From a phage: a stretch of 64,000 bases of DNA. A program made the position numbers and the translations under genes. The notes beneath the pieces were generated by a model. The model worked only from the letters and a program-made list of their open reading frames with translations. It was not told the origin of the DNA and did no database searches. Location of the stretch: sequence record PZ540767.1. One strand, written 5' to 3'. Shown piece by piece: positions 5,969-48,294 of the stretch. The number at the start of each line of letters is the position of its first letter. The stretch's first letter is position 1.

Positions 5969-5974
5969 TAAATT

Positions 5975-6061: not shown

Positions 6062-6066
6062 GAATT

Positions 6067-6143: not shown

Positions 6144-6209
6144 TAATTAGCCCTCTACTGTCGCCATCCAGTAATCCAGTTGGAATCGAACCAACACAGA
6201 GGGGTTATT

Positions 6210-6579: not shown

Positions 6580-6605
6580 AAAAAGAAGCCCTAGCGAACT
6601 AGGGC
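6580..6605 (-). terminator. rho-independent terminator after 6660..7280
   Basis: GCCCTAG-CGAA-CTAGGGC hairpin with T-tract on the minus strand (AAAAAGAA on plus). Confidence 0.55.
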
Positions 6606-6659
6606 TAATGCAGGAATCCAATCCGAATCTTCGCTGGATTTAGTTATGCCATAGCTAAC

Positions 6660-7280: not shown

Positions 7281-7336
7281 TTGTATGGCCTCTTTCTGGT
7301 TTAATACAACAAATTATTTACTAAGGTTAGAACACT

Positions 7337-12959: not shown

Positions 12960-12968
12960 GGATAAACC

Positions 12969-14198: not shown

Positions 14199-14217
14199 TC
14201 GACTGGTATACTATATA

Positions 14218-14240
14218 GGGAGCCTTGTGCTCCCTTTTTT
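14218..14240 (+). terminator. rho-independent terminator
   Basis: GGGAGC-CTTGT-GCTCCC hairpin followed by TTTTTT. Confidence 0.7.
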
Positions 14241-14254
14241 ATTATGAGGTCACC

Positions 14255-18516: not shown

Positions 18517-18560
18517 TGAGGTTACAATCTGGGTACTCCACAATACTAAGGAATACTCAG

Positions 18561-27500: not shown

Positions 27501-29198
27501 GCACTGGTGAACATGGGATACCAAAAAGTATCCCCACTGTCCCAGGACTCTTTGTCAAAACACTCTGGACGTGTACTGTATGTGACCAAAGAGAATGGGT
27601 ATCAACGAACCGTCTCTGGTACTTTCAGTTTAACTGGAAGCCAGCGTAAAGGTTCTTCCCTAAGTGGGGATCGTGCTGTTGCTGATCGTGTTCGAGCTGA
27701 CGAGTTAGAACAGTTAAGGCAAGCGTCCTATGCAGACGTGCGAGGGCGTGAAGCACTGTCCCACACTGCCTTTGATCCTACTCAGATCCAGGATAACCAT
27801 GTAGTGCCTGTATTAAGCACTGATGGTCATATCATGGACTTCCGTTACATGGCTACCCACAATACTCGTGACACGTTCCTTGATCGTAATAATGACTTTG
27901 CTGACCTTGTTGGTCGTCTGGCTGGTCAGAATATCGATAAGGGTGATGCCCCAAGCCAGAATGCTAAGATCCTGGAAGCTCTGCATGAAGACTCTAAGGC
28001 TAATATCCTGAAGAATCCTAATGCTTACTTTGAGATTGGGCCTAATGCACCTACTGAGCGAGGACGTGAGATCTGGGCAATGATGCCTTATGAAGCACGT
28101 ACTAAAGCTACTTCTCTGTGGGGTGCTGATCGTATGTATATTCGAAACGATCTGGTTAACCTTACTTTTGGCTTCCGTAAGTATTCACTGGCTAACATTT
28201 TTGATGTTGATCCAGAACAGCGTAATATTGCTCAGGGTGTTGCTGCTGGTTTACTTGAAGCTGCTTTTGGTGATAAGGCTAAAGCTTATGTAATTAAGGG
28301 TGAGCGTGGCATTCAGGAATTTATGCAGTCCTATAAGGACGTGATCGTTATTCGTAACCTGAAAACCCAGTTCAGTAATATTATGTCTAATACTGCTCTA
28401 CTGGCTGCTTATGGCGTTAACCCGGTACGTATGGTTAAAGATATCCGTACTGCTCTGGTTGCTGGGATTGACTACCGTAAACAGTACTCGCTGCTACTCA
28501 AGTATCAGCAACAGCAACGTGCTGGTATTGGTAACTTTGCTCAGATGGAGTCCCTGATCAATGAGACGCAGGATCGCTTGAATGCTAACCCTCTGGCTAA
28601 GTTTATTCAGGCAGGTATGATGCCTACCATCGTAGAAGACGTTCAGCCTGATGCTGATGGTTACACTTATGGTTCTAAGATCCGTAAGAAATTTAATGAG
28701 GTATCTGCCCATCTGCCAGCTTCTGCTGTAACAGCTGCTCGCTGGGCTGTGATTGATAAAGGTACTGCACCTCATAAATTCTTAAGTGATGCTGCTCAGT
28801 TCAGTGACTTTGCTGCTAAGTATGCTCTGTATAAGCACCTGACAGAACATGCCCGAGATCGCCTGAGTCATACTGAGGCTTTACAACGTGCATCTGATGC
28901 TTTTGTTAACTATGACATTCCAGCTACAGCTACTCGCCAATATCTGGATGATATGGGGATTACCATGTTTACGAAGTATCGTGTTCGTATCCAACGTGCA
29001 ATGTTCTACTTGATGGATAAACGTCCAGCATCTGTTATGGCACATATGGCAATTACAGGGCAGTTTACTCATGCACCTGATGCTATGGAGCCACTGTTTG
29101 CACGTAACTTAGGTAACCCATTCACACCTTCAGTATTGCAGGGTGGGAGTTTGTTGAATGTCCCAATGCCTTGGAACTTATTCAGAATGGCATACTAA
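18561..29198 (+). CDS. virion-packaged RNA polymerase (N4 vRNAP-like giant protein)
   Basis: Single uninterrupted ORF of about 3,550 aa; ATG at 18561 has an AAGGA RBS (first in-frame ATG at 18516 lacks one); followed by terminator. Confidence 0.85.
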   Translation: MAGNSSPLDKFLVPQQVTGQEAAQALPAPTQPTIAQRVNDASTRILNNLTGQGMYPTEEGEIARLKRINNEQSAYAKEVAAKDSDYGWSSTNFLDPETSSLTDRTASTFVNYGKALTDAVNGLAGKTDKTFKTLGNVLDQASIPNDALDAYRRVQAGKGTEADNALLDRQGAWWTQPIEVNQYGVPEMGNQTLRQRLDAINERQKTQNQSSYDNLEKLANPVQMQQAAADIEKSIEGKSGLDKFAAGLAAIARNPGAAGQTMVESAPYMVGGIPGMLASSAMQGGSVLSQYLDTQRKASDGQIPTAKDVAIGTGLGVVDGALNFAESIINRTAMLPGSKVLPAGVADRLVNAAQRIAPRSSTAAAALARVTAPTLDLAKNALTEGLVSGAQNQIEENYAKGKNEWDTKGNDVAFFQGIAAATGFGAPRAALSTAGEVANTAAQAMQKRTEAQDPVGQAARNTTPEDLMNPQSEGYNPAAAIRRAGMEWTRNTDATTDEQKAEIQSQAQSAMDAAQNDHQNNLDMINQRATAERTLADAGKFIPAIQERLDQLSNDPNADPDAVNQLQTILAQQTEARDAAQQQLDAMPSQEELAQSATRSAEVLDQAKSEFGKFSSATGMNTNTAKPENPTASDIISHPMSYTNEDLQEFVRNAPANATPAELGTLRALADAKVAENAVKTGSKVNSEIFKSTSNNLSLGDYQQGINTAVQAGDTNRIQSLMTGINNFETSHTAKADIAQQYLNEAKQNGKSYQILKTSNGWELNTGKRLDAKAQAKNGGFTIHKGSTGLVNNIVNEAKAITATRQYMEGIATPSTNQNVTGSTEQVASPEAQPEGAATVAGETGAQEQQAQPTISPLTTRDIRAMDQATLEKVMATTQQAMSSDTNPVLARNLDALDREWTRRADVATNQNRGVDAPHRKLDDSFKPKAQENEIQRSQAETTTQTEHTQADIDNESTGSESQQTAPVNVDDVVTNTDTLTETQQDNVAHGALSIFGKVGESLKALREKALAEPKGLQNLVLTGFNQRVRPGFGSPLVAVKDFINTLKTAVDTGSFTEVNRFLKQHISESKAEGAKQKALLKQFVEFHDHITANLDNIIRTKAPEYRYQDFAQFILDENGNFDSNTKTGIAAGIFSWLGENGDKMFLNQSEVAKTLRIKEDQLTPQAMSRMADIGYRQDLIMSQLGQRIYQAMGFAKRADVDPNRASKLQNALGAYALHAMYSNGYMEQSLMTAKEYFDLQTMGLDEQSAKEAAQAFQNDFGVSPNDAKHKIVFSRPARNFDAEGKPVAIEAISDIKNGMKDTRSLMSKLFGYDPAVREVLTTKPAGFKQKVFGKMNREVPSVLAARISKAMQYDYTIDQGVVNAMRTMSTVDNAALQHIFGVRTDADVPNEMEIFKKGREAKNADIQRSMEMGLDFANRRGTNPFWMPMEVWTNQRIGDLASEFNPQGSKVHRAMGGLSAHQVEISVARNAPVLDADGKPTQYGLFLVSLAQGMEEAPVIGADGKKLKSVDKQTYATFLPAFQNYLRKPENIKAVRAMQKVIAGSATTADTNVIKNAVAEYGMNGQSFAALHNLAQYATALESGKSSVKLLAQMESDGVTNGPILTNILNGSADFDLLKRGGIYREGDNITNMPTYRELGGQDYYELLGDAMRQHWADYKTNAPASQQGQIQALEYFSTGYGARSKAKTLATPFNYSAGIPALKAAMGRATVEDVYSKIGSLIPLAKSNNKADFAKAYAEVSKNLSVLLGQKVNLPRTADGLVKFSLNPAQTKRIIDVDSQTRGVATETAVNEVAADFIASRDANTSLVNTTFTLANLRYNAAKAALLKKRIAEGKIPVDAKGAPLEGLTQADLDKLSRMIPNMPSATGVLSENTKASGYPMAKVEKAFTAKSPATSIDIYFKEAANPKPAMDANGMLLSQGLVGGYKSTQSTVTETKLTNPGVAMGANVTQGTDAAISSDVISKIESQNVHDANILSPDNVLKGARIQNKAMFDAVVSYHPQHLAASALLTEVRSLAGANLSTNDKVAAKKALEAMKTKILGKDFKGNMKAALNTILNQAYDRDIKKLETLSEVYAVNQYGTEGGEYLITDTDRKKIGDEIARLKRSRAAGLQRISAMFSKGNAPKAEANQYPDKMRQYLYEASASTGSVSASEVMARTKGKFANPVYNELHNLISGLIPADAVVNVLDGQTMPKNVKGQSLPQNRDAIAWSYQDKNTAQVNLSLSKEASPEVLLHELTHIALGRAIATADSNPKVKAVLARTEKLMGRVTKLVSADPQLTQKFAPALANVDEFISWGMTNPEFQRYLDTITGVPEISGRNRGWLGTAFKQFVDQMSGIFAAVTGRAINARVTTALEALTFDTAHLVQAINPTAIESPVSSISHPMSNTNSAADQVAKFSHVDIFDNLASTGGKTNSAQFTGNLRNVISTVADQLYGALGSRVTQNANENYTPGQVWNEAVATGKAPVSTEALSNGFVLTNQEAFAVEAIEAAVSESLASGFTSPVNREIRRTWQAAKQSLKPEDFHNGNWNQATQAEKRAAQQKWNYLFDVTNDSGESQHLSRFVAMAIGHEDTSNLLGFQMEDGKDSGNTAFEQATAYFNQAVNTVSGMLTNTHQGQAANARAQALAEKLIQIELKNRDTTMNILTGGIDKVENALDTAAAKSKQFLGKIVKATGIDQSSNNALNAMGKVAGLAARDQLGSLKETIKEFRDFNAPSTPEGSLASILTEATNADDVRALHESLLRSTKRIEQDRATLAAVTAKNLNEMFDNNGQDLTKEDRTAMTYSLLRTDLQSVLHIEGMNLNNLHKLVSNTGYRKQQINNLEKTISQYANGNDKIIRAKALGFWMATGRNTLGRDLVLNAKAIATGAATHYSTVGIEPTLDEVNAIDALASMYALSYTKTENRVRTAAVMERELARGKDNGIKMLMATYANLIEDSANTLFAGNQLSRIKGYLPEDTNPHHDLRAVESGSADEAALVNMGYQKVSPLSQDSLSKHSGRVLYVTKENGYQRTVSGTFSLTGSQRKGSSLSGDRAVADRVRADELEQLRQASYADVRGREALSHTAFDPTQIQDNHVVPVLSTDGHIMDFRYMATHNTRDTFLDRNNDFADLVGRLAGQNIDKGDAPSQNAKILEALHEDSKANILKNPNAYFEIGPNAPTERGREIWAMMPYEARTKATSLWGADRMYIRNDLVNLTFGFRKYSLANIFDVDPEQRNIAQGVAAGLLEAAFGDKAKAYVIKGERGIQEFMQSYKDVIVIRNLKTQFSNIMSNTALLAAYGVNPVRMVKDIRTALVAGIDYRKQYSLLLKYQQQQRAGIGNFAQMESLINETQDRLNANPLAKFIQAGMMPTIVEDVQPDADGYTYGSKIRKKFNEVSAHLPASAVTAARWAVIDKGTAPHKFLSDAAQFSDFAAKYALYKHLTEHARDRLSHTEALQRASDAFVNYDIPATATRQYLDDMGITMFTKYRVRIQRAMFYLMDKRPASVMAHMAITGQFTHAPDAMEPLFARNLGNPFTPSVLQGGSLLNVPMPWNLFRMAY

Positions 29199-31017: not shown

Positions 31018-31758
31018 TTACATGGTAAATGGATCATCACCAGTGGTGGCATTGTCAGATCCTGGGTTGAAACCAGCACCTGCAAAGTTACCACCCGGAG
31101 CACCAGCGTTACCCTGACCAGTCACTTCTTTGAAGCGATCCCATACCTGGCCTTTGTTAGCTTCGAGCCACTTATCTTTGAAAGTAGCGACTTCCTGCTT
31201 ACCACGAATTTCCTGTTCAGTCTTATCGTCTTTACTACGGAAGACTTTTGCAATGGCATTGATCTCACGAGCTTCATTGATCGGCTCATACTGACCATCA
31301 TCGTTGCGTTTCTGCTTGTTCTCTTTAATACGCTGGATAGCGAAGGTGATCGGTTTACCACACAGATCCACCAGCATAGGAACATCAGTCGGAACTTCGG
31401 CTTTCTTCTCGAAGTTATACAGGTTGATGGTTTTGGTTTCTGGTTCCAGTTTAACCAGAGGCTTACCGCAGGCCAGCAGGCAGATCGAGTTTGCTTTCAG
31501 GAAGTTCTTGGTGTACTCGCCTTTATCGTTGACGACTTTACCCTGACCGTTCATGAACCAGATCTGCTCTTTGTAGATGCCGTGATCATCTTCGAATTCG
31601 ATGTTCATGGCTTGAGCTTTGGACTTTTCCGACTTGGTGATGTAAGCCAGTTTGATGATGCCCGGATAGACGTCAGTGTCACGAATGCGCATACCAGTGC
31701 CCAGGGTATCTTTCTCTACTGCTTTTTCTGCATCATAGTTAAAATCAAAATAAGACAT
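31018..31758 (-). CDS. ssb: single-stranded DNA-binding protein
   Basis: 246 aa; C-terminal Gly-rich linker ending in acidic GDDPFTM tail, like bacterial/phage SSB tips; AAGGTAA RBS; N4-like position. Confidence 0.6.
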   Translation of the reverse strand: MSYFDFNYDAEKAVEKDTLGTGMRIRDTDVYPGIIKLAYITKSEKSKAQAMNIEFEDDHGIYKEQIWFMNGQGKVVNDKGEYTKNFLKANSICLLACGKPLVKLEPETKTINLYNFEKKAEVPTDVPMLVDLCGKPITFAIQRIKENKQKRNDDGQYEPINEAREINAIAKVFRSKDDKTEQEIRGKQEVATFKDKWLEANKGQVWDRFKEVTGQGNAGAPGGNFAGAGFNPGSDNATTGDDPFTM

Positions 31759-38599: not shown

Positions 38600-39664
38600 T
38601 TACTCTCCTGGTTTCAATAAAGCTGACAGATCACGGGCACCAGATAGCTCAGTAGCTAAGTTCTGGTTAAAGCCTAATTTATGCTTGGCCCAGTTACGGG
38701 TGTACTGCAACTGAGTACCAGCAAAGAAATCTGCAAACTTATAGGAAGACAAGGAGGTATAGAACCAACTGGAGATAACGCCTGATTCCTGCTCGAACAT
38801 GTTCGGCATACCCAGACGATTCAGCACCACGTTCACACGATCACGAATGAAGTGCTGCATTTCTTCTTTGGTTACTACACGGATGGTTTCAGGAGCCTTG
38901 GCAAAGATACGTTCGATCATAGCGAACTCATGATCATGAACATCTTTAGCCATCTTCCAGATAGCATCAGCTAATGCTTCCTGTTTGGCTTCATCCATAT
39001 TGCCAGCTTCAATACGTTCCTTTTTACAGGTGTTATGAAGCCAGGCAGAGAACATGCTGTGATAGTTTTCATCTTTGGCTGAACCGTCGATACCTGCCAC
39101 AAAATGGGGGATCAACTTAAAGCCAGGACGGCTGAATGATTTGAAGAATGCAAATGCTGAGAACAGCATCACACCTTCGAGGAATGCTAACGCTGCTGTA
39201 GCTTCCAGAGCATCACCAGAAGACGCTTGTTCGTCGATCCATGCAATATGCTTGGACAGGTCTTCGTCACGCTTCCAGGTGGTGTAGAACTCATCTGTAG
39301 CCAGATCCAATGACTGATTAATCAGATCATAGAATGGGGCATGAGAGTTAAGCTCAACCATAGCGAATACAGCACAGGCACGTTGAACGTGAGGACGAGG
39401 GAACAGACGCTGGATACGTCCACCCCACATCTCTTCACCACCGATCATTAACTCATACTGAGTCAGGACGGTCTGGAGAGTGAGGATACCTTCACGTTCA
39501 CCTTCAGTTAGTTTGTTGTGGAAGTCACCAACGTCTTCCTCTACACCCAGTTCTTCAGCAGGCCAGAAGATAGCCATCTGGCTAGTGGCTGCTTCGATAG
39601 CTTGGGGGTAGTCGATGACGTAAGACTCTGTTGGAGTCTCAATACGTGAGAGAGGTTTAGTCAT
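38600..39664 (-). CDS. nrdB: ribonucleotide reductase small subunit
   Basis: 354 aa; ferritin-like di-iron carboxylate protein pattern; 2 nt downstream of nrdA. Confidence 0.8.
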   Translation of the reverse strand: MTKPLSRIETPTESYVIDYPQAIEAATSQMAIFWPAEELGVEEDVGDFHNKLTEGEREGILTLQTVLTQYELMIGGEEMWGGRIQRLFPRPHVQRACAVFAMVELNSHAPFYDLINQSLDLATDEFYTTWKRDEDLSKHIAWIDEQASSGDALEATAALAFLEGVMLFSAFAFFKSFSRPGFKLIPHFVAGIDGSAKDENYHSMFSAWLHNTCKKERIEAGNMDEAKQEALADAIWKMAKDVHDHEFAMIERIFAKAPETIRVVTKEEMQHFIRDRVNVVLNRLGMPNMFEQESGVISSWFYTSLSSYKFADFFAGTQLQYTRNWAKHKLGFNQNLATELSGARDLSALLKPGE

Positions 39665-39750
39665 AATTTACCCAAAGAATATTGAGTTGGTTGAAAAGGG
39701 TAGTGAGCATAACTCACTTCCCCGGATTCTGTAATCTGGTTATTTAACCA

Positions 39751-40509
39751 TTATGACTTGGTGAGTGCTGCCCAGCTAACCGGGAACAGAGGTTCCACAA
39801 TAGCTGCTACAGCATGGGCCAGATCCTGAATTTCCTGCTGTGCATGAGAATCAGAACGCTTGTTGAAGAAATTAGCAAAGGCCAGCAAGTTACCTGTCCA
39901 AATCCAGTTAACCATAGCACCTTGAGGCAGTACGAAACGTGCTTGCTCAGGGGCAACACCATCTTCAATCATCTTCTCATAAAGAGCTACTGCCTCTTGA
40001 GTATGGTAGATGTATTGGCGTTTCCAGTAGTCGTTTGCTTCATGGATACCAGCACTACCTTGCTTGATTGAGCCTTCTGGTTTCTGGCGGAATTCAGGGA
40101 TGAAGATCTCAGGAGTACTGCTGATATAACGACGAGACTCTTCATTCTCAACCAGTCCCTGCTTATGTTTGAAGCACTGGGTACGGATAGGAATTGGAGC
40201 CTTCATACGCAACGTGATTGCAGTATGGGCAAATGGTGTCCAGTGAACAGCCTGATGACGGATACGATCATAAAGCCATTCTGCTTCTTCTTTGCCAGAA
40301 GTAGAGTAGTTATCTGATCCCTCTTGGATCATGTTGATAATTACAGCTTTATCTTTACTGGTTACACCATTAGCCAGGAAACGGATAAGACTGGCATCCT
40401 GTTCAGGGGTAGTGACCTTTTTCAGTGGGCCAAATGAAATACGAGCTACATCTACTACACGTTGATCATCACCCATGTGATCAATGTACTCTGCTACTTG
40501 TTGGATCAT
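39751..40509 (-). CDS. thyX: flavin-dependent thymidylate synthase
   Basis: 252 aa; ESRRYISS and FFNKRSDSHAQQEIQDLA segments match ThyX signature regions; GAGGTAAG RBS. Confidence 0.7.
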   Translation of the reverse strand: MIQQVAEYIDHMGDDQRVVDVARISFGPLKKVTTPEQDASLIRFLANGVTSKDKAVIINMIQEGSDNYSTSGKEEAEWLYDRIRHQAVHWTPFAHTAITLRMKAPIPIRTQCFKHKQGLVENEESRRYISSTPEIFIPEFRQKPEGSIKQGSAGIHEANDYWKRQYIYHTQEAVALYEKMIEDGVAPEQARFVLPQGAMVNWIWTGNLLAFANFFNKRSDSHAQQEIQDLAHAVAAIVEPLFPVSWAALTKS

Positions 40510-40591
40510 TATACTTACCTCAGTAAAGGGCTATGCTGCCCATTGTTTAAAAAACAGTTATCATGTCTGTATTCATATACAGGAGACTCCC

Positions 40592-41311
40592 ATGAATATT
40601 CGAACCACTAAGGTAGATGTGTACCTGGTTAATCCAGATGGATCGCCAGCTACTAATTTACGTTTTTACGTTAAACCATTGCGAGCAAGCTTCTGGTCAA
40701 CCTACCCAGGGGTTGCTATAGATGTGGAGCTTTGTGAAACTACGGACAGTACAGGGCATTGTATTTTAGATCTCGTTGCTCTGCCTTATCCATATGAGCT
40801 TACCTATGATGACTCTGATGATTCAATCCCTGGTAGCTTCTTGTTCTATGTCCCGGATGTAGACTTCACAGTTAATTTCCAGGATCTGATCGTTACCCGA
40901 GCTGATTCTCAGGATAAGTATGTAGATAATGCTCTTAACCAGATTATTGATGGTGTGGTTAAATCTAAGCATTATAGCGAAGTGGCTCAAGCAGCTTCTG
41001 AAGCTGCGAAGCAAGCGGAAGAAGCCATTGAGACACAAGCTCAAGTACTCGCACCACAGATTACACAAACTGAACAGATGTTAACAGAAGCTCAAGAGGC
41101 TTTGACTGAAGTTCAGCAAGCCAAATCAGACTTTGAAAGTACCAATGCTTCCATTGTTACTGCTGCGGGTATTATTCAAAACAGTGCTATTACTGGAAAG
41201 TTACCTATTGGGGAATACACCCTCTGGGTTGATGCTGATGGATTACTTCGTATTATCCATGGCAACCCAACAGGGGACAAAGATGGGGTTGTTGTGGGAT
41301 CTCAATCATAA
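40592..41311 (+). CDS. hypothetical tail-associated protein
   Basis: ATG at 40592 with AGGAG RBS; ORF-track start at 40484 would overlap thyX on the other strand; first gene of the plus-strand island. Confidence 0.5.
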   Translation: MNIRTTKVDVYLVNPDGSPATNLRFYVKPLRASFWSTYPGVAIDVELCETTDSTGHCILDLVALPYPYELTYDDSDDSIPGSFLFYVPDVDFTVNFQDLIVTRADSQDKYVDNALNQIIDGVVKSKHYSEVAQAASEAAKQAEEAIETQAQVLAPQITQTEQMLTEAQEALTEVQQAKSDFESTNASIVTAAGIIQNSAITGKLPIGEYTLWVDADGLLRIIHGNPTGDKDGVVVGSQS

Positions 41312-41389
41312 CGGGTAATTTCGATAGCCTTATAGTAAGATCTTCCATTAAGATTAGGGTAGTGACTTATTTTTGATGGGAGATCTTCT

Positions 41390-43627
41390 ATGTCTTGTAA
41401 TTGCACCAACAATTGCAATTGTGGTGATCCATGTTCAGATACCCAGATTCGTCGCATTGTTGATGATGCTGTAGCAGACCGCGTAGAGGACTTGGAAGGT
41501 ATTGCTTCTGACGCCCAAGGTTCTGCTACTGCTTCTGCAAACTCTGCAAACCAATCTGCACAATCTGCTACACAATCACAGCAATTTGCAACCACTGCTG
41601 GTAACAATGCCACTTCTGCTGCCCAGTCAGCACAGCAAGCTGCTGTATCTGCTACTGCTGCGGCTGAATCCGCGTCAGCAGCTGTTCAGGTTACTACTGG
41701 TTTAAAACAAGTAGCTGATGAGCTGACTGCTACTGCTTCTGGTTTATCTTCTAAGGTTGATCAGGCAAACCAGAATGCTGAATTAGCTGAGACTGCTCGT
41801 GATGAGGCTGTTGCTGCTGCTTCCAGTGCTCAAAATAGTGCTGCTACTTCCACAGCATCTGCCAGTGCTGCTAATGTGGCTGCTTCGGCTGCTGCTTCGT
41901 CGTCAGGCACTGCACAAACTGCTGCGGGTCAAGCAGGTGAGTACGCTGTACAAGCTGCTGAGTTAGTTTCTAATCTTGATACTAAGATTGATACTGCTGT
42001 ATCTACTGCACTGGATAATGCAACCGAAGATGTAATTAATGCTGCTACTGAACAGGCTACTTCAGCTGCAAACTCTGCATCTGCTGCTGCCAGTTCTTTA
42101 GAAACTATGTCCAGCACTCTCGCAGCTGCAACTACTAGTGCGGTTGCTCAAGCTACTGAAGATGCTGAAGCTGCACGAGATGCTGCTGAGTTAGCTCGTG
42201 ATCAGGCTAATGCAATAGCAACCTCTGTGGGACTGGTGCCTGATGAGGCTACTGGTTTAGCAAATACCACTGAAGGGCAGTATTTTACTGTAGGTCAGGG
42301 TACAGAATCTGATGCTGCAACTATCACCTACCGTAATGTTGGCGGGGTTGCTGTGCCAGTATTTACTTCTGTGGGTACGGCTGCTTTTACCAAACTGTCT
42401 ACTAAGTTCTTAAACCTGGTAACCCAGGTAGACTATGGAAATGCTGTTGCTGGTTTTATCGATGATGCAAACATGTCTCCTCTGTTTATTAATCCAGAAG
42501 GGTATGTGATCATTAACAACCTCAATTTCCTTGAGCAAGTGCAAGCTCTGCTTAATAAAATTGATGCTTTCTATAACTTCTTTAATAGCTATCCATCTGA
42601 TGAGTATGTCCAGAAGGGTGGCTTTATTGATGATGAAGGCAAACTTCCCCTGTACTTTGACCAGTATGGGGATGTTTGGTTGGGTGATGGCCCGGTTAAC
42701 CTCAGCAAATTTGTGCAGGATTACTCAGCACTGGTTACTAAGGTTAATGATGCAGTTTATGAGATCAATGGAACAGGTAATATTGTCTGTCATGGTGACT
42801 CATTAACTGCTGGTGCAGGTTCTGCTACAGGTCGTGGGTATGTTGAACGTTTACGTACTCGTCTTGCCCCACAGGGTATTACTGTAACTAAACGTGCTGT
42901 AGGTGGGCAGGGTGCCCAGGCTATCGCTACTCGACAAGGTGGTTATGTTAACCTGTTAACGCTGGAGAATAACATTCTTCCTGCTGCTGTTCAGCCAGTT
43001 AACATTGTATCCAGTTCCCAAAATCCAATCACCAGCCAAGGTGGTGGGCCTATCTCAGGTATGCTTAATGGTATTCGTGGTACTGTAGCTGCTACTTTCA
43101 ATGGCACTACCCGCCTTACTTATACCTTTACCCGAGCAGAGGCTGGAACTGCTGATGTCTATATTGATCCTGAATCTCCGTTTATCAAAACTGAAGACGG
43201 TCATGAATACGATATTGACATTATCTGGCTTGGTCGTAATAACACCTCAAGCCCTGACTTGGCTCAAATTTGTTTAGATGCTCTGGATGCTTGTGTTAAG
43301 CATCTTAAAGCTAAAAATAAACGTTTTGTGGTAATGTCCATCCTCAATGGTGCGTACTCCACTGAGTACAAGGGAGGCGAGGTTTACCAGCGTATTATTA
43401 ATGCAAACAATGCCATTAAGTACAAATACCCTGAGAACTATTTGGAAGTTCGTGGGCCATTGGTGCGTTCTTATAACCCATCTGTTCCTCAAGATGTGGT
43501 TGATTTTAACAATGATATTGTTCCTTCAAGTCTCCGTAATGATGCTATCCACTTAAATGACAGTGGGTATGATATCCTTGAAGAACTGGTTTACAACTTT
43601 TTGAAAAGTAAAGGATGGGTAGCCTAA
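41390..43627 (+). CDS. tail fibre/spike protein with C-terminal SGNH (GDSL) esterase domain
   Basis: 745 aa; Cys-rich N-terminus, long Ala/Ser/Thr-rich helical repeat region, then IVCHGDSLTAGAG GDSL block with downstream D/H residues. Confidence 0.7.
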   Translation: MSCNCTNNCNCGDPCSDTQIRRIVDDAVADRVEDLEGIASDAQGSATASANSANQSAQSATQSQQFATTAGNNATSAAQSAQQAAVSATAAAESASAAVQVTTGLKQVADELTATASGLSSKVDQANQNAELAETARDEAVAAASSAQNSAATSTASASAANVAASAAASSSGTAQTAAGQAGEYAVQAAELVSNLDTKIDTAVSTALDNATEDVINAATEQATSAANSASAAASSLETMSSTLAAATTSAVAQATEDAEAARDAAELARDQANAIATSVGLVPDEATGLANTTEGQYFTVGQGTESDAATITYRNVGGVAVPVFTSVGTAAFTKLSTKFLNLVTQVDYGNAVAGFIDDANMSPLFINPEGYVIINNLNFLEQVQALLNKIDAFYNFFNSYPSDEYVQKGGFIDDEGKLPLYFDQYGDVWLGDGPVNLSKFVQDYSALVTKVNDAVYEINGTGNIVCHGDSLTAGAGSATGRGYVERLRTRLAPQGITVTKRAVGGQGAQAIATRQGGYVNLLTLENNILPAAVQPVNIVSSSQNPITSQGGGPISGMLNGIRGTVAATFNGTTRLTYTFTRAEAGTADVYIDPESPFIKTEDGHEYDIDIIWLGRNNTSSPDLAQICLDALDACVKHLKAKNKRFVVMSILNGAYSTEYKGGEVYQRIINANNAIKYKYPENYLEVRGPLVRSYNPSVPQDVVDFNNDIVPSSLRNDAIHLNDSGYDILEELVYNFLKSKGWVA

Positions 43628-44403
43628 TGGGTAACTTCATTAAAATGGGCACTACGCTGAGTAATGCCAACCTGACTAAATTAACTGCTGATGCGACCAT
43701 CGATAACAGCACTGTAATGCTGATTGACTTTGGGCGTAAAACTTCAGTGCCTAACCAAACAGATCTGGTTAACGGTGATACTGTTGGCAACCTGGTTGAA
43801 GGTCAAGCAGGGGGTTCTGTAATTACCGGAACCAAATTCCTCTTCTCTGCTGCTGGTAAGTACATTACTAAGCAAGAAGGCGATATCTCAACCCGAATCC
43901 AGTTGCCTGATGTTTGTAAGGTTAAATCTACTGATCGTAGCTTCCAATTTAGCCTGTGGTTTACCCACATTGATAAAACGGATACTCAGGGTAGCCAAGC
44001 ATTGGGTGGTTATGCATCTAACTCCAGTAACCAGATGCCTTTTGCATTTTACTGGTATGATGGTCAATACAACTTGGGTTGTGCTGGTTCACGTACTGCA
44101 TTTGCTACTCCAGCGGCGGGAACAGTACACCAGTTGTCTGTTGCTTGTGACCTAGATCTGGGTATTCGTAAGTTCTATCACAACAATGAACTGATCCGTA
44201 CTGAGACTAATATTGGTCTTAGTGAAATGACTCAGCCTGCTGCTGGATCTCTGCCTTGGTTGTTCTACCTGGGTGGTGGTTTTAACAGCCGTGGTAACGT
44301 TAAGATGCACCGAGCATGGCTTGATATTAACGGTGGTGGTGCTAAGTTCGATGCAAAAGTAGCTGCGGACTACAACACCAACTACAGCCGATTTGCGGCT
44401 TAA
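43627..44403 (+). CDS. tail fibre-associated protein, possible receptor-binding jelly-roll domain
   Basis: ATG at 43627 overlaps the upstream stop (TAATG); Gly/aromatic-rich beta-type composition; followed by terminator. Confidence 0.45.
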   Translation: MGNFIKMGTTLSNANLTKLTADATIDNSTVMLIDFGRKTSVPNQTDLVNGDTVGNLVEGQAGGSVITGTKFLFSAAGKYITKQEGDISTRIQLPDVCKVKSTDRSFQFSLWFTHIDKTDTQGSQALGGYASNSSNQMPFAFYWYDGQYNLGCAGSRTAFATPAAGTVHQLSVACDLDLGIRKFYHNNELIRTETNIGLSEMTQPAAGSLPWLFYLGGGFNSRGNVKMHRAWLDINGGGAKFDAKVAADYNTNYSRFAA

Positions 44404-44420
44404 GTTAGTAACTTAGAACT

Positions 44421-44446
44421 AAGCCCCTTTATTAGGGGCTTTTTTA
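44421..44446 (+). terminator. rho-independent terminator
   Basis: AAGCCCCT-TTATT-AGGGGCTT hairpin followed by TTTTT. Confidence 0.8.
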
Positions 44447-44461
44447 TATATGAGGTTTATT

Positions 44462-44950
44462 ATGAAAATGTCGAATGAAGGACGCAAAGTAACTAAGTAT
44501 TTTGAGTCCCTTAAATTACGTGCTTACCCTGATCCTGCTACTGGGGGTAAACCATGGACTATTGGGTATGGTCATACTGGCCCAGATGTTTATCCTGGTT
44601 TGGCAATTTCGCAAACCAGAGCTGAACAGTTGCTTGATGCTGACCTTGCTAAGGCTGAAGCAGAAGTAAACAAGTATGGGCATAACCTTACCCAAGGTCA
44701 GTTCGATTGCCTTGTGGACATGGTATTTAATATGGGATCTGGTTTTATCCGGCCTGACAACATCAAGGGTGATTTTGATGACTTTGTTGCATCGGGTAAT
44801 ACTGCTGAGATGCGTAAACGTATTCCTCAATTCCGTATGGCCAACGGTAAAGTTATGAGAGGTTTAGTACGTCGTCGTGCTGCTAACCTTGCTACATGGG
44901 ACGGTAAGTCTGGTGATGAAGCAATTAAAATAGGGGTAAATGCTGCATGA
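44462..44950 (+). CDS. endolysin, GH24 T4-type lysozyme
   Basis: FESLKL...YPDPATGG...TIGYGHT catalytic E/D/T triad pattern and DCLVDMVFNMG motif; GAGG RBS before ATG 44462. Confidence 0.85.
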   Translation: MKMSNEGRKVTKYFESLKLRAYPDPATGGKPWTIGYGHTGPDVYPGLAISQTRAEQLLDADLAKAEAEVNKYGHNLTQGQFDCLVDMVFNMGSGFIRPDNIKGDFDDFVASGNTAEMRKRIPQFRMANGKVMRGLVRRRAANLATWDGKSGDEAIKIGVNAA

Positions 44951-45168
44951 AACTTGTAGAAAACTGGAAGTCAGCATGGAAGTGGTATTCTGTGCATATT
45001 ATGGTAGTGATCGTTGCACTTCCTGAAATCTGGAGTTACTTTCCACAGGAGTTTAAGGATTCATTACCTCCACATGCTCTTGCTGGATTAACAACTTTCC
45101 TGGGTATCTCAGCGATTGTTGCTCGTCTGGTTTCTCAGGAGAAACGTAATGATCAAGGATCTAATTAA
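44947..45168 (+). CDS. small membrane protein, candidate holin
   Basis: 73 aa; start overlaps endolysin stop (ATGA); two hydrophobic segments; inside lysis cassette. Confidence 0.45.
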   Translation: MKLVENWKSAWKWYSVHIMVVIVALPEIWSYFPQEFKDSLPPHALAGLTTFLGISAIVARLVSQEKRNDQGSN

Positions 45169-45658
45169 ACAGTATGCTGTTTTGTTAGGTTCTGTTCTGG
45201 CCCTGGCTTTACTTGCCGGGGCTTGTTACTTAACCTATGTTGTAACAGATAACCACTGGTCTGCTAAGTATTCTGGATTAGAACAGAAGTATAGTGATGC
45301 TTCTGCCAAAGCTACTCAGGAGGCCAGAGTCAAAGAATGGGAGTACCAAAACAATGTTGATGCAATCGCACAGCAAGGGGCTAAAGACCTCGCACAAGCT
45401 CGCTCTGACGCTGATATTGCCAATGCTTCTGTTAGCAGGTTGCAGCAACGGATCAACCGTTTACTTGCCAACACCAGCTCCGAAGATTCCGGCACTACCC
45501 AAAGAGGCAAGACAGCCAGAGAAGCCCTCGATCTGCTTGCCAACGTGCTCGAAAAATCTCTCGAACGAAACAGACAGTTGGCTGACTACGCCGACAAAGC
45601 CAGTAGTGCTGGATTCACCTGTGAAAAAGCCTACGACGCCATCCAATCAGGCAAGTAA
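45149..45658 (+). CDS. i-spanin (Rz-like)
   Basis: AGGAG RBS before ATG 45149; N-terminal TM helix then periplasmic coiled-coil region; an o-spanin-like ORF overlaps in another frame. Confidence 0.6.
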   Translation: MIKDLIKQYAVLLGSVLALALLAGACYLTYVVTDNHWSAKYSGLEQKYSDASAKATQEARVKEWEYQNNVDAIAQQGAKDLAQARSDADIANASVSRLQQRINRLLANTSSEDSGTTQRGKTAREALDLLANVLEKSLERNRQLADYADKASSAGFTCEKAYDAIQSGK

Positions 45659-45683
45659 TACTAAGTTGGTTTATTTCGTATAA
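45354..45683 (+). CDS. o-spanin (Rz1-like outer-membrane lipoprotein), out of frame within and past i-spanin
   Basis: Signal peptide ending in lipobox LLAGC, Pro-rich mature region; start is my best guess among in-frame ATGs. Confidence 0.5.
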   Translation: MLMQSHSKGLKTSHKLALTLILPMLLLAGCSNGSTVYLPTPAPKIPALPKEARQPEKPSICLPTCSKNLSNETDSWLTTPTKPVVLDSPVKKPTTPSNQASNTKLVYFV

Positions 45684-45734
45684 ACCAGTAGAATGATGTA
45701 CATTAACTAGACTTTTCATGAAGAGGAAACACCT

Positions 45735-46178
45735 ATGTCTAAAGTCCCCTCTATCGGTGCTGGTGTTATCACTACCGATGATGTGCTGGCACAAGGCTAT
45801 GATTTTATCCCCCTGAAAATGGGTGGTATGGCTAAAGTGCCTGCTGATGTAGCCGCTGCTCAATCTAAAGACGTCACTGGTGCTGCTTATACTAAACCAG
45901 CAGCTCTGAGTCTGACTACTGATCTGACTGCTACTAAATCTGTTGCTGAAGGTGCTGCCCTGGAACTGAAAGTAGTTCCTGCTGGCGGTGTTGCACCTTA
46001 CAGCGTTACCTGGTTTAAAGGTGGCTCTGCTATCCAGACTCTGGGTAGTTCTACCCTTAACCTGGGTGCAGCTACTCTGGATATGGCTGGCTCTTACCAT
46101 GCTGAAGTCTACGACGCAGCTGGTAAAGAGATTCAGTCTACTACCTGCGTAGTGACTGTCACTGAAGCTGGTGGTTAA
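45735..46178 (+). CDS. Ig-like domain capsid decoration protein (N4 gp17-like)
   Basis: 147 aa; GAGGAAA RBS; beta-sandwich-type pattern YSVTWFKGG...GSYHAEVYD...CVVTV; followed by terminator. Confidence 0.55.
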   Translation: MSKVPSIGAGVITTDDVLAQGYDFIPLKMGGMAKVPADVAAAQSKDVTGAAYTKPAALSLTTDLTATKSVAEGAALELKVVPAGGVAPYSVTWFKGGSAIQTLGSSTLNLGAATLDMAGSYHAEVYDAAGKEIQSTTCVVTVTEAGG

Positions 46179-46196
46179 TAGCTACCAGCATGAATA

Positions 46197-46220
46197 AGCC
46201 CCCATTTGGGGGCTTTTTTA
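46197..46220. terminator. rho-independent terminator, likely bidirectional
   Basis: AGCCCCC-ATTT-GGGGGCT hairpin followed by TTTTTT; lies between convergent plus and minus genes. Confidence 0.8.
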
Positions 46221-46406
46221 TTACCCTGTTAAACCTAAAAGGTTATCAGGATCCTTTACCGCCGTATCTTTGATAAAGGCAAAGGGAACGATGATCTTCC
46301 CGAAATGGAAGGCATTAGCACTTTCTACAATTTTATTTGCTTTGAAAGTGAGTGCACCATTATTTCTGAAAAAGATAGTTATCTCAGCTGGAATTTTGTC
46401 TGTCAT
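46221..46406 (-). CDS. small hypothetical protein (61 aa)
   Basis: Translationally coupled (ATGA overlap) to the upstream small ORF. Confidence 0.35.
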   Translation of the reverse strand: MTDKIPAEITIFFRNNGALTFKANKIVESANAFHFGKIIVPFAFIKDTAVKDPDNLLGLTG

Positions 46407-46633
46407 AGAGAGGCAATCCTGTGAGTTGCAGCCCTGATACGACTAATACGCTTAGTGTGTATTGTCTCATTTCTGTCGTAGCCTCGGGCATTTCTACGAA
46501 TGGTTTCACACTCTGCCCTATAGGCAGGAGTCTGAGTTTGTTTTTGTAGGATCTTAGAACATTTAGAGTGAACTCGTTTATTTCGTAAGATCCCACAGAT
46601 TGGACATACGTTAAATGTTGGACTGAAAATCAT
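46403..46633 (-). CDS. small basic Cys-containing protein, possible zinc ribbon
   Basis: 76 aa; CPICG near N-terminus, Arg/Lys-rich; start overlaps methyltransferase stop (ATGA); competing frame 46384..46596 judged less likely. Confidence 0.4.
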   Translation of the reverse strand: MIFSPTFNVCPICGILRNKRVHSKCSKILQKQTQTPAYRAECETIRRNARGYDRNETIHTKRISRIRAATHRIASL

Positions 46634-47436
46634 GGTTTTAGTACAGCAATGATATCTTTGGCTACTTCTCGTGATTCAGCTTTAGCTGAGATGCTACGAG
46701 TTGCAGTTAATGGGTGAATGTCAAAACCAGCTTTGGTATAGAGATCAACTAAACGTGGAGCACTACTATTTGTAATGACCACTCTTACACCTCTGGCTTT
46801 AAGCTCAAGAGCTTTACCTACCAGACGTTTCTGATCTCCCCACTTAAAGCTGGTGCCACTATAGCTTGTGAACCCCTGATGTTTAGGCATAGGCTCATAA
46901 GGTGGATCACAAAATACAACATTACCTTCCTCAGCAGTGTTCATAAATAACATGAAGTCTGTATTTGCTACTGTTGGTTTCAAACCAGAATTGATGAAAT
47001 CTCTGAGTTCCTGTTCAGGGAAGTAAGGTTGTTCTTTCTGGCCCCAAGGAACATTGAATTCCTTTTTCTTGTTGTAACGACACAGGCCATTAAAGCCAGT
47101 ACGATTGAGCACCAGGAAGAACACGGCTTTAGACAGGGAATTGAACTTACCACTGTTAAAGTTAGCCCTGAGCTGATTGTAGCGAGCTTCTGAGTTACAC
47201 CACTCATGCAGTTTCTTTGCCTGGTTCAATACATAATCACCATTATGGATGAGGGCTAAGTAGAGCTGGCATAGATCAGGATTTACATCATTGATAGCCA
47301 CCTTATCGAAACCAGCATTCATAAATACTGATCCTGCACCCACAAAAGGTTCAATGAGACGATTACCAACTAAGAATGGTTGGATTTGAGGAAGCTGGCG
47401 ATACTTGCCACCTGCCCACTTAAGCCAAGGTTTCAT
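46630..47436 (-). CDS. dam: Dam-like N6-adenine DNA methyltransferase
   Basis: 268 aa; N-terminal WAGGKYRQL, FVGAGSVF AdoMet-binding motif and catalytic DPPY motif. Confidence 0.85.
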   Translation of the reverse strand: MKPWLKWAGGKYRQLPQIQPFLVGNRLIEPFVGAGSVFMNAGFDKVAINDVNPDLCQLYLALIHNGDYVLNQAKKLHEWCNSEARYNQLRANFNSGKFNSLSKAVFFLVLNRTGFNGLCRYNKKKEFNVPWGQKEQPYFPEQELRDFINSGLKPTVANTDFMLFMNTAEEGNVVFCDPPYEPMPKHQGFTSYSGTSFKWGDQKRLVGKALELKARGVRVVITNSSAPRLVDLYTKAGFDIHPLTATRSISAKAESREVAKDIIAVLKP

Positions 47437-47545
47437 TTGAGCACCAATGCTAACAGGTTCATAACGAGTTCATTGGCTTGATAGGCCAAGAACCAGAAGG
47501 CACCCAGCAGTATTGCCAGTATGCACCACACTTTTCCGCGAAAGC

Positions 47546-47925: not shown

Positions 47926-48249
47926 TTACTTAGGTGAACCTGTGTAGGACGTCTTGCCTTCAAACAGCCTTTCTACATACTGGAAGATCTTAATCCCCAG
48001 ATAGGCAGATGCTGAAGTGAATATGGGTTGCGTAATCCCAGTAGGCAACTGACTTGCCACTACAGGGTAGGCATCCCATGCCAAATAGCCTGCGAGTAGA
48101 GCTGCTGACATTTCTGTAGCTGCTGCAACGAAGGTTACCTGACCATAGCGTAGGATTCGTCTCCCAACGGAGATTGCACCACTGACAGTACTAATCAGGA
48201 GAGCACCCAGTAGCTGAACATAAAAGTTCTGTTGCTGATCTGGGGTCAT
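47926..48249 (-). CDS. membrane protein with three predicted TM segments
   Basis: ATG at 48249 with GGAG RBS; hydrophobic segments throughout. Confidence 0.45.
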   Translation of the reverse strand: MTPDQQQNFYVQLLGALLISTVSGAISVGRRILRYGQVTFVAAATEMSAALLAGYLAWDAYPVVASQLPTGITQPIFTSASAYLGIKIFQYVERLFEGKTSYTGSPK

Positions 48250-48294
48250 GACACTACTCCAATTCACTTACATGAAATGGATTGTAACGTTAAT

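Follow-up and report, generated by a model that had tools for sequence, protein, structure and literature searches.

In N4-like phages the timing of gene expression is set by the strand, and late genes are transcribed by the sigma-70 RNA polymerase of the host, which the phage single-strand-binding protein redirects. In N4 itself, the adsorption and lysis genes gp60-gp66 (Rz, endolysin, holin, gp64, sheath gp65 and appendage gp66) lie on the late strand, directly adjoining the genes for terminase and portal in the late operon, while the decoration gene gp17, coding for a Hoc-like protein, is on the early/middle strand at 6759-7598, distant from the capsid cluster. A different arrangement has already been published for phiKp27, Possum and LUZ7/LIT1. 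The phiKp27 preprint describes a "cluster F" of opposing orientation that unites tail/host-binding and lysis genes. For Possum, a set of seven tail-fibre and lysis genes in reverse orientation is in print (PMC9569702), and tail and lysis genes have been reported as rearranged in LUZ7 and LIT1 (PMC3715699).

Here we analyse a phage sequence of 64,000 nucleotides (PZ540767.1; hereafter the window), which belongs to an N4-like Klebsiella podophage of the genus Efbeekayvirus (Schitoviridae) with about 94% identity to Klebsiella phages P184 and cp20. Its segment 30000-54999 aligns to seven Efbeekayvirus records at 92.5-94.6% nucleotide identity and 82-83% coverage, and homologues of N4 TerL (57%), portal (49%), major capsid protein (51%), and vRNAP and SSB (33%) are encoded. 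Between minus-strand thyX and dam, the ORF map shows a plus-strand run of seven to eight genes at 40592-46178, coding for a virion adaptor, an SGNH-esterase tail fibre (a predicted activity), a 258-aa lectin-fold protein, an endolysin, a holin, Rz/Rz1 spanins and an Ig-like Hoc-type protein (Table 1). The run shares its strand with the virion structural operon (1244-29544), opposite to that of the surrounding replication (middle) genes. An earlier sequence-only reading had described a self-contained island carrying a lysis cassette and an Ig-like gene, and in this it was borne out by the ORF map and by family matches for endolysin, holin, Rz, Rz1 and the Hoc-like gene. It had also counted several tail fibre genes, of which one is a fibre and the second codes for the lectin-fold protein, which is no fibre. 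We consider it highly probable that 40592-46220 is the late-strand tail fibre-lysis-Ig-like block of Efbeekayvirus, inherited in its position, with only the receptor-binding cassette replaced recently.

Table 1. Features of the late-strand block and its borders in the window.
Feature	Position	Strand	Evidence
thyX, flavin-dependent thymidylate synthase; left flank, middle/replication strand	39751..40509	-	Pfam Thy1, E 6.5e-37
thyX-adaptor divergent intergenic region, 82 bp; candidate late promoter	40510..40591		alignment with P184, GADU21, BM327-1.2, Nepra
Tail adaptor/connector protein, 239 aa	40592..41311	+	phrog_20500 (tail protein), E 5e-34
Long hairpin, 3' arm over fibre ribosome-binding site up to ATG	41334..41389	+	RNA fold of 41312-41389
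Tail fibre, 745 aa	41390..43627	+	phrog_11419 tail fibre, phrog_19652; Lipase_GDSL_2
258-aa accessory protein, predicted concanavalin-A-like beta-sandwich fold	43627..44403	+	phrog_19357 (function unknown), AlphaFold model
Intrinsic terminator between fibre and lysis genes	44421..44446	+	terminator scan (44421-44441) and RNA fold
Endolysin, lysozyme family	44462..44950	+	Phage_lysozyme, E 8e-30; phrog_7
Holin, 73 aa, two hydrophobic segments	44947..45168	+	phrog_1356 holin, E 5e-23; DUF7940
Rz-like i-spanin	45149..45658	+	phrog_312, E 2e-40; DUF2514
Rz1-like o-spanin lipoprotein, +1 frame	45354..45683	+	phrog_11621, E 5e-23; LLAG/C lipobox (LAGC)
Ig-like protein annotated Hoc-like head decoration	45735..46178	+	phrog_4069, Hoc-like, E 5e-20
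Intrinsic terminator closing the block	46196..46220	+	terminator scan (46196-46215) and RNA fold
dam, Dam-type N6-adenine methyltransferase; right flank, middle strand	46630..47436	-	MethyltransfD12, E 3.3e-47

The closest described phages are those of the same genus, the type species phiKp27 (vB_KpP_FBKp27), P184, GADU21, Tribble and BM327-1.2, which are about 92-95% identical in nucleotides over the flanks and lysis genes, with the block in the identical position and terminators at equivalent sites. They differ in carrying two large spike/depolymerase genes (with pectate-lyase-type notes in FBKp27) where the window has one putative esterase fibre and the lectin-fold protein, and their adaptors share 45% identity with the adaptor here, except for BM327-1.2 with 86%. 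Cbunavirus (Pectobacterium phages Possum, Horatius, Nepra and CB1, and Kosakonia phage Kc283) has the same gene order on the strand opposite to the replication genes, namely thyX, adaptor, fibre(s), endolysin, (holin), Rz, Hoc-like gene, small ORFs and dam, and shares the concept of an adaptor plus an SGNH-deacetylase fibre. However, protein identity to the window phage is just 50-72%, the SGNH domain of the Possum fibre is central and followed by a separate C-terminal binding domain, unlike the distal SGNH module here, and the 258-aa gene is without a homologue in Possum. In Litunavirus and Luzseptimavirus (LIT1, PEV2, PA26, DEV, LUZ7), the exonuclease/primase and rIIB/rIIA blocks flank embedded late-strand genes for fibres and lysis, but the endolysin type differs and neither an Ig-like gene nor thyX or dam is present at the borders. 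Their N-terminal virion-docking domain is homologous to the adaptor here, although it is fused to the long fibre, whereas the window phage has a separate adaptor.

The embedded block was found at the same place in every Efbeekayvirus examined (P184, GADU21, FBKp27, Tribble and Erwinia phage MIF8), in Cbunavirus Nepra and Kc283, and in PA26 and LUZ7, and an independent Logan contig is colinear with it at 95.3% nucleotide identity over 7.7 kb. In N4, Achromobacter phage Axy10 and Vibrio phage SBP1, fibres and lysis genes instead lie between the gp67-like gene and portal, and the DNA polymerase-exonuclease-primase run is unbroken; the replication module is likewise unbroken in DFL12phi1 and S6. 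In a neighbour-joining tree of primase and exonuclease (11 taxa), a single bipartition, with 94% bootstrap support, unites the taxa that bear the island, and island-free SBP1 is their sister (91%). Since N4, Axy10 and SBP1 retain the genes between the gp67-like gene and portal, a single ancient move of the block, on the stem lineage of the Efbeekayvirus/Cbunavirus/Litunavirus/Luzseptimavirus clade, is the most likely course; midpoint rooting of the tree suggests that the move started from an N4-type layout. The proposal that adsorption, lysis and decoration functions moved as one block away from the portal/capsid/terminase cluster is thus tenable only as an old clade-level event, with the Ig-like gene left out of the relocated set, because N4 gp17 is located elsewhere and the Litunavirus and Luzseptimavirus islands are without such a gene.

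Two other accounts of this relocation have been weighed. In the first, the late operon and the middle region swapped segments in one reciprocal exchange, which would have produced both the island and a minus-strand insert at 4608-7280 that carries MazG, five tRNAs and small ORFs, each segment keeping its strand and hence its timing. Indeed, the insert lies exactly at the fibre/lysis site of N4-type genomes, the same site holds MazG and tRNA-Gln in Nepra and two small opposite-strand ORFs in PA26, and orf103 of the insert has an N4 homologue in gp48, a middle-strand gene. What the insert carries varies by genus, however, the gp48-like gene of PA26 stays in the ordinary middle region, and tblastn of the sampled SBP1 and N4 middle regions detected no MazG homologue. 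Independent insertion at a permissive gap accounts equally well for these data, and we regard the exchange as unlikely. The second account, which we hold to be quite unlikely, reverses the direction: Schitoviridae would have had the embedded layout first, and the N4-type layout, with fibres and lysis genes in the late operon, would have come from it. In principle the tree has no root, and rooting it on the branch that leads to the island clade makes both states equally parsimonious; moreover, lysis cassettes have clearly changed place at least twice within the family, and in a Pylasvirus-like contig (L023) the cassette is on the opposite strand, between fibre genes and portal. Against this, the fibres and lysis genes are part of the late operon in three sampled lineages (N4, Axy10 and SBP1), SBP1 among them being the nearest neighbour of the island clade, the replication module is unbroken in all five sampled island-free lineages, and the endolysin of roseophage EE36phi1 is in the N4 position (Ceyssens et al.).

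Within the inherited position, change has been uneven. Taken literally, the sequence-only reading implies mosaic boundaries at the outer edges, and synteny spoke against them, as close relatives are identical in organisation and blastn homology, put at about 88-92% or 90-92%, is continuous across both edges. That the whole block of fibres, lysis genes and decoration gene recently moved or was acquired as one mobile island is very improbable: it would fit the sharp strand switch, the terminator at the right edge and the somewhat greater divergence of the edge-adjoining thyX (86-92% aa identity to Efbeekayvirus homologues) and orf76 (80-82%) relative to other flanking genes, but the placement is identical in at least 10 genomes of four genera, homology is unbroken over the edges, the lysis and Ig-like genes are 90-96% identical to those of genus members, close to and slightly under the 97-100% of most flanking genes, GC is flat (0.446 in the island vs 0.447 in the whole window), a search for flanking repeats, integrase and transposase found none, and the Ig-like gene is absent from some islands and located elsewhere in N4. 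Identity per gene falls only from the adaptor to the 258-aa gene. The left breakpoint is at 40952 (adaptor codon ~120) or 41782 (fibre codon ~131), and the right one coincides with the 44421 terminator, homology with FBKp27, Tribble, P184, GADU21 and BM327-1.2 resuming at 44414-44443. These alignments place the recent change in a predicted receptor-binding cassette inside the block, made up of the distal fibre and the 258-aa gene.

The proteins of this region have diverged to different degrees. The adaptor is 57% identical to that of P184 and 95% to that of BM327-1.2 in its N-terminal half, and 44% and 78% in its C-terminal half. From residue 5 to residue 127 it matches the long tail fibres of Litunavirus in their N-terminal part (33-35%), and its N-terminal ~120 aa is assigned as the virion-docking domain; DEV gp53 docks to the head-to-tail adaptor by a barrel at its N-terminus (PMC11445570). 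Upstream of the fibre gene, 41312-41389 folds at -27.1 kcal/mol (z -4.6), with none of 200 shuffles equally stable, and the counterpart hairpin in BM327-1.2 has an identical stem and a different loop. The fibre consists of an N-terminal anchor (aa 1-131), an Ala/Ser/Thr-rich repeat shaft (imperfect repeats at 41515-42213) and a distal SGNH/GDSL module (aa ~271-745), predicted to be an esterase solely from a Pfam match at aa 467-515 (33.3 bits, cut-off 32.9; motif CHGDSLTAGAG). At the level of this motif it resembles the N4-like receptor-binding proteins G7C gp63.1 and Possum gp66, for the latter of which polysaccharide deacetylation has been demonstrated, and for G7C by citation (PMC9569702). 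Its nearest relatives are uncharacterised fibres of Pylasvirus-like and Ahphunavirus phages, and N4 receptor-binding proteins are not homologous to those of the window. Residues 1-139 are 81% identical to BM327-1.2.

The start of the 258-aa gene overlaps the fibre stop codon (ATGA), and an SGNH fibre adjoins it in every instance found. A model of medium confidence (pLDDT 70.5, pTM 0.77) gives its product a predicted lectin fold, with Foldseek matches to the Hc lectin-like subdomains of clostridial neurotoxins and the lectin domain of trans-sialidase (E ~1e-7, TM ~0.5). Relatives of both cassette members are found at the classical position in L023 (76% aa identity for fibre residues 271-745 and 83% for the 258-aa protein) and in the T7-like Autonotataviridae coliphage Ptacy1537 (49% and 64%), where the gene next to the fibre is annotated "pentraxin-like". 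By this comparison, the SGNH-esterase module at the distal end of the fibre and its lectin-fold partner of 258 aa travel as a pair between unrelated phages.

Downstream of the cassette, the endolysin is 94-95% identical to genus members, and the Rz1 gene overlaps Rz, ending 25 nt past the Rz end. A second holin-family gene (phrog_6854) is found outside the island on the minus strand, at 47926-48267. The Ig-like protein, 90-91% identical to genus members and 53% to Nepra, has Pfam Ig matches that are all under gathering scores (Ig_3 23.4 bits vs a cut-off of 30), and its similarity to N4 gp17 is weak.

Strong terminators had been read as bounding the island. Both are GC-rich hairpins with a T-run after the stem, folding at -14.2 kcal/mol (z -2.9) at 44421 and -18.4 kcal/mol (z -3.7) at 46196, but the former is internal and the left edge has no terminator. 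Hairpin and T-run at the 44421 position are kept in all relatives compared. The 46196 terminator lies between the Ig-like gene and a convergent minus-strand ORF of 61 aa, and terminators are annotated at the equivalent site in FBKp27; two small minus-strand ORFs separate the block from dam, which is 98% identical to genus members. At the left edge, the thyX-adaptor intergenic region holds a conserved CTGCCCA motif, a TAnnAT -10-like hexamer (40559-40564) and then a GGAG ribosome-binding site, and may contain a late promoter; a sigma-70 consensus scan found no match in this region, and overall gave fewer sites than shuffled sequence (9 vs 14.9).

Since the block is on the late strand and timing in N4-like phages is set by strand, it would be expressed late, presumably starting from this intergenic region, with the timing carried over from LUZ7, LIT1 and N4. 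A homologue of the N4-like single-strand-binding protein is encoded at 31018-31758. The lysis genes would probably be reached by read-through of the 44421 terminator, because there is no room for a separate promoter between it and the endolysin start, and the 46196 terminator would end the transcription unit. In LUZ7, experiments show that Crick-strand genes are all strictly late even if embedded, and that middle antisense transcripts cross them (PMC9163698).

The suggestion that the block bears on host range stands, with the signal in the internal cassette up to the 44421 terminator and not in the island as a whole. The architecture is already known, and the exchange of receptor-binding genes within it is ordinary modular exchange.

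Three strand domains make up the window in the ORF map, namely a plus-strand virion module (1244-29544), a minus-strand replication module that begins at 29419, and a plus-strand run (40592-46178) lying inside the latter. An ORF of 3560 aa at 18516-29198 is homologous to N4 gp50, and over its C-terminal part the giant virion RNA polymerase matches N4. Identity to the N4 proteins is 57% for TerL, 51% for the major capsid protein, 49% for the portal, 46% for the primase, 44% for DNA polymerase, and 33% for SSB. When 30000-54999 was searched with megablast, seven Klebsiella phage records, including P184, cp20, P19-618, and pKP-BM327-1.1, matched at 92.5-94.6% nucleotide identity with 82-83% query coverage, and the records of P184, pKP-BM327-1.1, and pKP-BM327-1.2 are classified in the database as Schitoviridae, genus Efbeekayvirus. 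The combination of a virion RNA polymerase, N4-type core genes, and high nucleotide identity places the window in the same family and genus.

The sequence-only reading had described the plus-strand run as fibre, lysis, and Ig-like genes set between minus-strand thyX and dam and bounded by two strong terminators. The gene run is confirmed by the ORF map and profile searches, and the description is correct. Both hairpins are also real, being more stable than shuffled sequence in RNA folding, but only that at 46196 stands at an edge of the block, on its right; the hairpin at 44421-44446 is internal and divides the fibre genes from the lysis genes. On the left, the block is bounded by a divergent intergenic stretch of 82 bp.

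Features of the window discussed in the text, with strand and basis of assignment
Feature	Coordinates	Strand	Basis or remark
Three small ORFs	within 4608-7280	-	
orf103	5024-5335		homologue of N4 gp48
Five tRNA genes (Gln, Ser, Tyr, Pro, Asn)	5799-6284		
MazG-like pyrophosphatase	6660-7280		
SSB	31018-31758		phrog_743
thyX, left flank	39751-40509	-	
Tail adaptor	40592-41311	+	phrog_20500
Fibre, 745 aa, C-terminal GDSL/SGNH motif	41390-43627	+	profile search
258-aa protein, family not assigned	43627-44403	+	profile search
Intrinsic terminator, GC-rich hairpin and T-run	44421-44446	+	terminator scan; folding
Endolysin	44462-44950	+	Phage_lysozyme
Holin	44947-45168	+	phrog_1356
Rz (i-spanin)	45149-45658	+	phrog_312
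Rz1 lipoprotein (o-spanin), overlaps Rz	45354-45683	+	phrog_11621; lipobox seen in sequence
Ig-like "Hoc-like" protein	45735-46178	+	phrog_4069, E 5e-20
Intrinsic terminator, GC-rich hairpin and T-run	46196-46220	+	terminator scan; folding
orf76	46403-46633		
dam, right flank, beyond two small minus-strand ORFs	46630-47436	-	

Endolysin, holin, i-spanin, and o-spanin together form a predicted canonical Gram-negative lysis cassette. The Ig-like domain of this candidate capsid decoration protein matches "major tail protein" families equally, with Pfam Ig matches under the cut-offs, and its similarity to N4 gp17 is weak and confined to the domain level, on which account orthology with gp17 was rejected. 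The hairpin at 46196 was likewise rejected as a bidirectional terminator, its minus-strand version having no T-run; the annotation of FBKp27 has terminators on both strands at the equivalent site. A second holin-family gene (47926-48267, minus strand; phrog_6854, E 1e-28) lies outside the block on the replication strand. Its product is 100% conserved across Efbeekayvirus loci and in Nepra, LUZ7, and PA26 homologues lie beside the island; the gene may serve in early lysis or as an antiholin.

The gene order running from thyX (minus) through adaptor, fibre(s), endolysin, holin, Rz, and Hoc-like gene (plus) to small ORFs and dam (minus) is common to two genera, Efbeekayvirus (P184, GADU21, FBKp27, Tribble, and Erwinia phage MIF8) and Cbunavirus (Nepra and Kc283). 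The independent Logan contig ERR2718575, near-identical to the window, is colinear with it from thyX to dam in a single 7.7-kb alignment at 95.3% identity. In this contig, ribonucleotide reductase small subunit is called at 7215-8280 as two pieces of 166 aa and 192 aa, and in the window it is one intact 354-aa ORF (38600-39664); the split could be a frameshift or assembly error of the contig. In Litunavirus PA26 and Luzseptimavirus LUZ7, a late-strand fibre/lysis block lies between the exonuclease/primase and the rIIB/rIIA blocks, and, unlike that of the window, it comes without Ig-like gene, thyX, and dam. Our synteny sample comprised about 16 genomes, while some 470 Schitoviridae genomes gave a primase hit; in the window and in 10 comparison genomes of this sample, the block is on the same strand as the structural genes and has primase/exonuclease on one side and DNA polymerase/rII on the other. 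N4 (Enquatrovirinae), Axy10 (Rothmandenesvirinae), and SBP1 (Electravirus) possess an uninterrupted DNA polymerase-exonuclease-primase run and carry fibres and lysis genes inside the late operon, between a gp67-like gene and the portal; the replication module is likewise uninterrupted in DFL12phi1 and S6.

In a small, midpoint-rooted neighbor-joining tree of primase and exonuclease (1021 ungapped columns, 200 bootstraps), all island-bearing taxa (Efbeekayvirus, Cbunavirus, and Migulavirinae) fall into one group with 94% bootstrap, and SBP1 is their sister with 91%. The simplest history suggested by these data is one relocation on the stem of the island-bearing clade, its direction being inferred since it depends on the position of the root. 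Adsorption, lysis, and decoration functions had been proposed to have moved as one block away from the virion genes. A relocation is indeed probable, albeit ancient, clade-defining, and already documented, but the Ig-like gene was not part of it, N4 gp17 being on the early/middle strand and the Litunavirus islands having no such gene. In L023, a Pylasvirus-like Logan contig of a Klebsiella phage, a lysis cassette of two holins, lysozyme, and an Rz-type protein (12943-15237) lies between fibre genes and portal on the strand opposite to the late genes, so that Schitoviridae have seen more than one rearrangement of lysis cassettes.

The embedded layout itself has been published several times, and our result is confirmatory. 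Rearranged tail and lysis genes in LUZ7/LIT1, and also deletion of the N4 endolysin region, were noted by Ceyssens et al. (PMC3715699), seven tail-fibre and lysis genes were reported as reverse-oriented in the replication region of Possum (PMC9569702), and the phiKp27 preprint defined a "cluster F" of tail/host-binding and lysis genes among clusters of opposing orientation. The window adds one genome to this known architectural class of N4-like phages.

Recent horizontal acquisition of the block finds no counterpart in its edges. In blastn comparison with five relatives, homology of about 88-92% runs unbroken across both outer edges, and the block occupies the same site in all close relatives examined. 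An acquired genomic island or moron was rejected, as absence from close relatives at the site, deviant base composition, flanking repeats, and mobility genes were not found. GC content is 0.446 in the island vs. 0.447 in the whole window and is flat (range 0.437-0.456), deviating neither in the island nor in the swapped cassette it contains. The repeat search detected no boundary repeats, only short matches at chance level and coding repeats of the fibre shaft, and neither integrase nor transposase was found among the ORFs by the ORF map and Pfam and phrog profile searches. Amino acid identity to genus members is 94-96% for lysis genes and 90-91% for the Ig-like gene, and reaches 97-100% for most flanking genes (RNR, exonuclease, primase, dam, and DNA polymerase). 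Two flanking genes, thyX (86-92%) and orf76 (80-99%; 80-82% to most members, 99% to BM327-1.2), are more diverged than the others, which points to additional small patches of recombination next to the block. Related genomes organized identically and free of mosaic boundaries, which the sequence-only reading had named as evidence against itself, are what the comparison shows at the outer edges, and its interpretation is overall partly supported.

Homology is lost only inside the block, from 40952 in comparison with P184 and GADU21 or from 41782 with BM327-1.2, and resumes at 44414-44443 in all five relatives (blastn). The N-terminal half of the adaptor shares 57% amino acid identity with genus members and 95% with BM327-1.2, its C-terminal half 44% and 78%, respectively, and the fibre N-terminus matches BM327-1.2 at 83% and no other genus members. 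The rest of the fibre and the 258-aa gene had no match in any sampled Schitoviridae genome, against an identity of 92-100% in the flanks. At the right junction lies the terminator hairpin, and a hairpin with T-run is present there in every relative, whatever gene stands upstream; in BM327-1.2 the hairpin sequence differs. The left junction with the distal module is near aa 271, at the end of the shaft repeats (41515-42213), which are imperfect direct repeats rich in GCT/GCA/TCT codons that encode an Ala/Ser/Thr-rich, coiled-coil-like stretch.

In the phage collection, fibre residues 275-744 best match Escherichia phage Ptacy1537 (Autonotataviridae, genus Ahphunavirus) at 49% identity, and the 258-aa protein has its sole match, at 64%, in the same phage, where the gene adjoins the fibre gene. 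The large protein database yielded, as closest partial relative, a 715-aa fibre of L023, a 70-kb contig that shares 94% identity with Klebsiella phage KpCHEMY26 and 93% with Pylas. There the 258-aa gene directly follows the fibre gene, the pair being 76% and 83% identical to that of the window and located at the classical position between gp67-like gene and portal. Other contigs, of 76 kb, join the same fibre N-terminal ~140 residues (81-86%) to SASA-type esterase domains. The distal SGNH-esterase module and the 258-aa gene are always adjacent (window 42200-44403; L023 10001-12924; Ptacy1537 5386-8414), on three unrelated backbones, those of the Efbeekayvirus window, the Pylasvirus-like contig, and the Autonotataviridae phage. 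Given that the pair recurs in unrelated backbones with lineage-specific anchors, the exchangeable unit is the distal fibre with its small partner, recombining on the left at the fibre anchor/shaft junction and on the right at the conserved terminator hairpin. A retained N-terminal anchor, an unrelated distal part, sharp breakpoints, and the same cassette elsewhere all point to ordinary modular exchange of a receptor-binding protein. What is new is the presence of this particular esterase-fibre and lectin-fold cassette on an Efbeekayvirus backbone, a combination of familiar type that can already be found in public read sets.

The fibre matches Lipase_GDSL_2 at 33.3 bits against a cut-off of 32.9 (aa 467-515), contains the motif HGDSLTAGAG, corresponding to GDSL block I with the catalytic serine, and has homologues carrying PF13472; it is predicted to be an esterase of the SGNH/GDSL polysaccharide esterase tail fibres. 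The Pfam scan gave nothing significant for the adaptor and the 258-aa protein, and the structure of the latter was therefore modeled. AlphaFold returned a beta-sandwich with a C-terminal helix at medium confidence (pLDDT 70.5, pTM 0.77) that matches concanavalin-A-like lectin subdomains in Foldseek (E ~1e-7, TM ~0.5), and a carbohydrate-binding accessory role is plausible from this model. This small family comprises 11 clusters among 5.8 billion proteins and lacks a Pfam domain. In tblastn, residues 5-127 of the adaptor, the first gene product of the block, align with the N-terminal ends of Litunavirus/LUZ7 fibres at 30-35% (E about 1e-6), and we infer that its first ~120 residues are homologous to the virion-docking domain with which Litunavirus long fibres begin, a domain forming a collar round the head-to-tail adaptor in phage DEV (PMC11445570). 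The adaptor C-terminal half co-varies with the fibre N-terminus, as is expected if both parts bind each other, and an adaptor-fibre arrangement of the same kind was proposed for Cbunavirus by the Possum authors (PMC9569702).

It is known that host sigma-70 RNA polymerase, activated by the phage SSB, transcribes the late genes of N4 (PMC3715699, PMC9163698, PMC11445570). ONT-cappable-seq of LUZ7 placed every Crick-strand gene strictly in the late phase, those inserted among earlier genes included, and revealed middle transcripts running antisense over late cassettes (PMC9163698). In the window, an SSB homologue is encoded and the block shares the strand of the virion genes, and by analogy the block would be transcribed late by host RNA polymerase. 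The sigma-70 scan of 39500-47500 found fewer sites than expected (9 vs. 14.9), none of them in the thyX-adaptor intergenic region, and therefore offers no usable promoter evidence; this region, a putative late promoter, has a CTGCCCA motif and a TAnnAT hexamer whose conservation extends to Cbunavirus. About 7 nt separate the T-run of the 44421 terminator from the start of the endolysin ribosome-binding site, so that the lysis genes are probably reached by read-through, and their dosage would thereby stay under that of the fibre genes. Between adaptor and fibre, a hairpin at 41334-41389 (-27.1 kcal/mol, z -4.6) pairs the fibre ribosome-binding site with its 3' arm up to the ATG, and BM327-1.2 has exactly this stem but another loop; the hairpin may exert translational control of the fibre.

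One could imagine that middle-phase transcription of the flanking minus-strand replication genes runs antisense over the block and holds back adsorption and lysis genes, and that the 44421 terminator, which abuts the endolysin start, together with the 41334-41389 hairpin would determine when fibre and lysis proteins are made and in what proportion. The clade might further have been founded by a reciprocal exchange, of which the island and a minus-strand insert at 4608-7280 would be the two products. In N4-type genomes, fibres and lysis genes occupy precisely the place at which this insert interrupts the plus-strand virion module; the five tRNAs of the insert were the only hits of the Rfam scan of the window. 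At the corresponding site, Nepra has MazG and tRNA-Gln, and PA26 two small opposite-strand ORFs. When MazG and small ORFs of the insert were sought in the middle regions of island-less genomes, only orf103 matched, to N4 gp48, which is too little support for the exchange. That the embedding is functional, through antisense hold-back and this tuning, and also arose by such a founding exchange seems to us unlikely as a whole.

For genome scans, these results mean that an "island" marked by a strand switch and terminators can have been passed on vertically throughout a clade. The supposed bearing of the island on host range is real as a link, but it belongs to the smaller internal cassette, the unit of relevance to host range, and not to the island. 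Recognition of this cassette would be of use in host-range prediction for Klebsiella N4-like phages, and in engineered swaps of receptor-binding proteins, for which the conserved adaptor N-terminus and the terminator are natural junctions.
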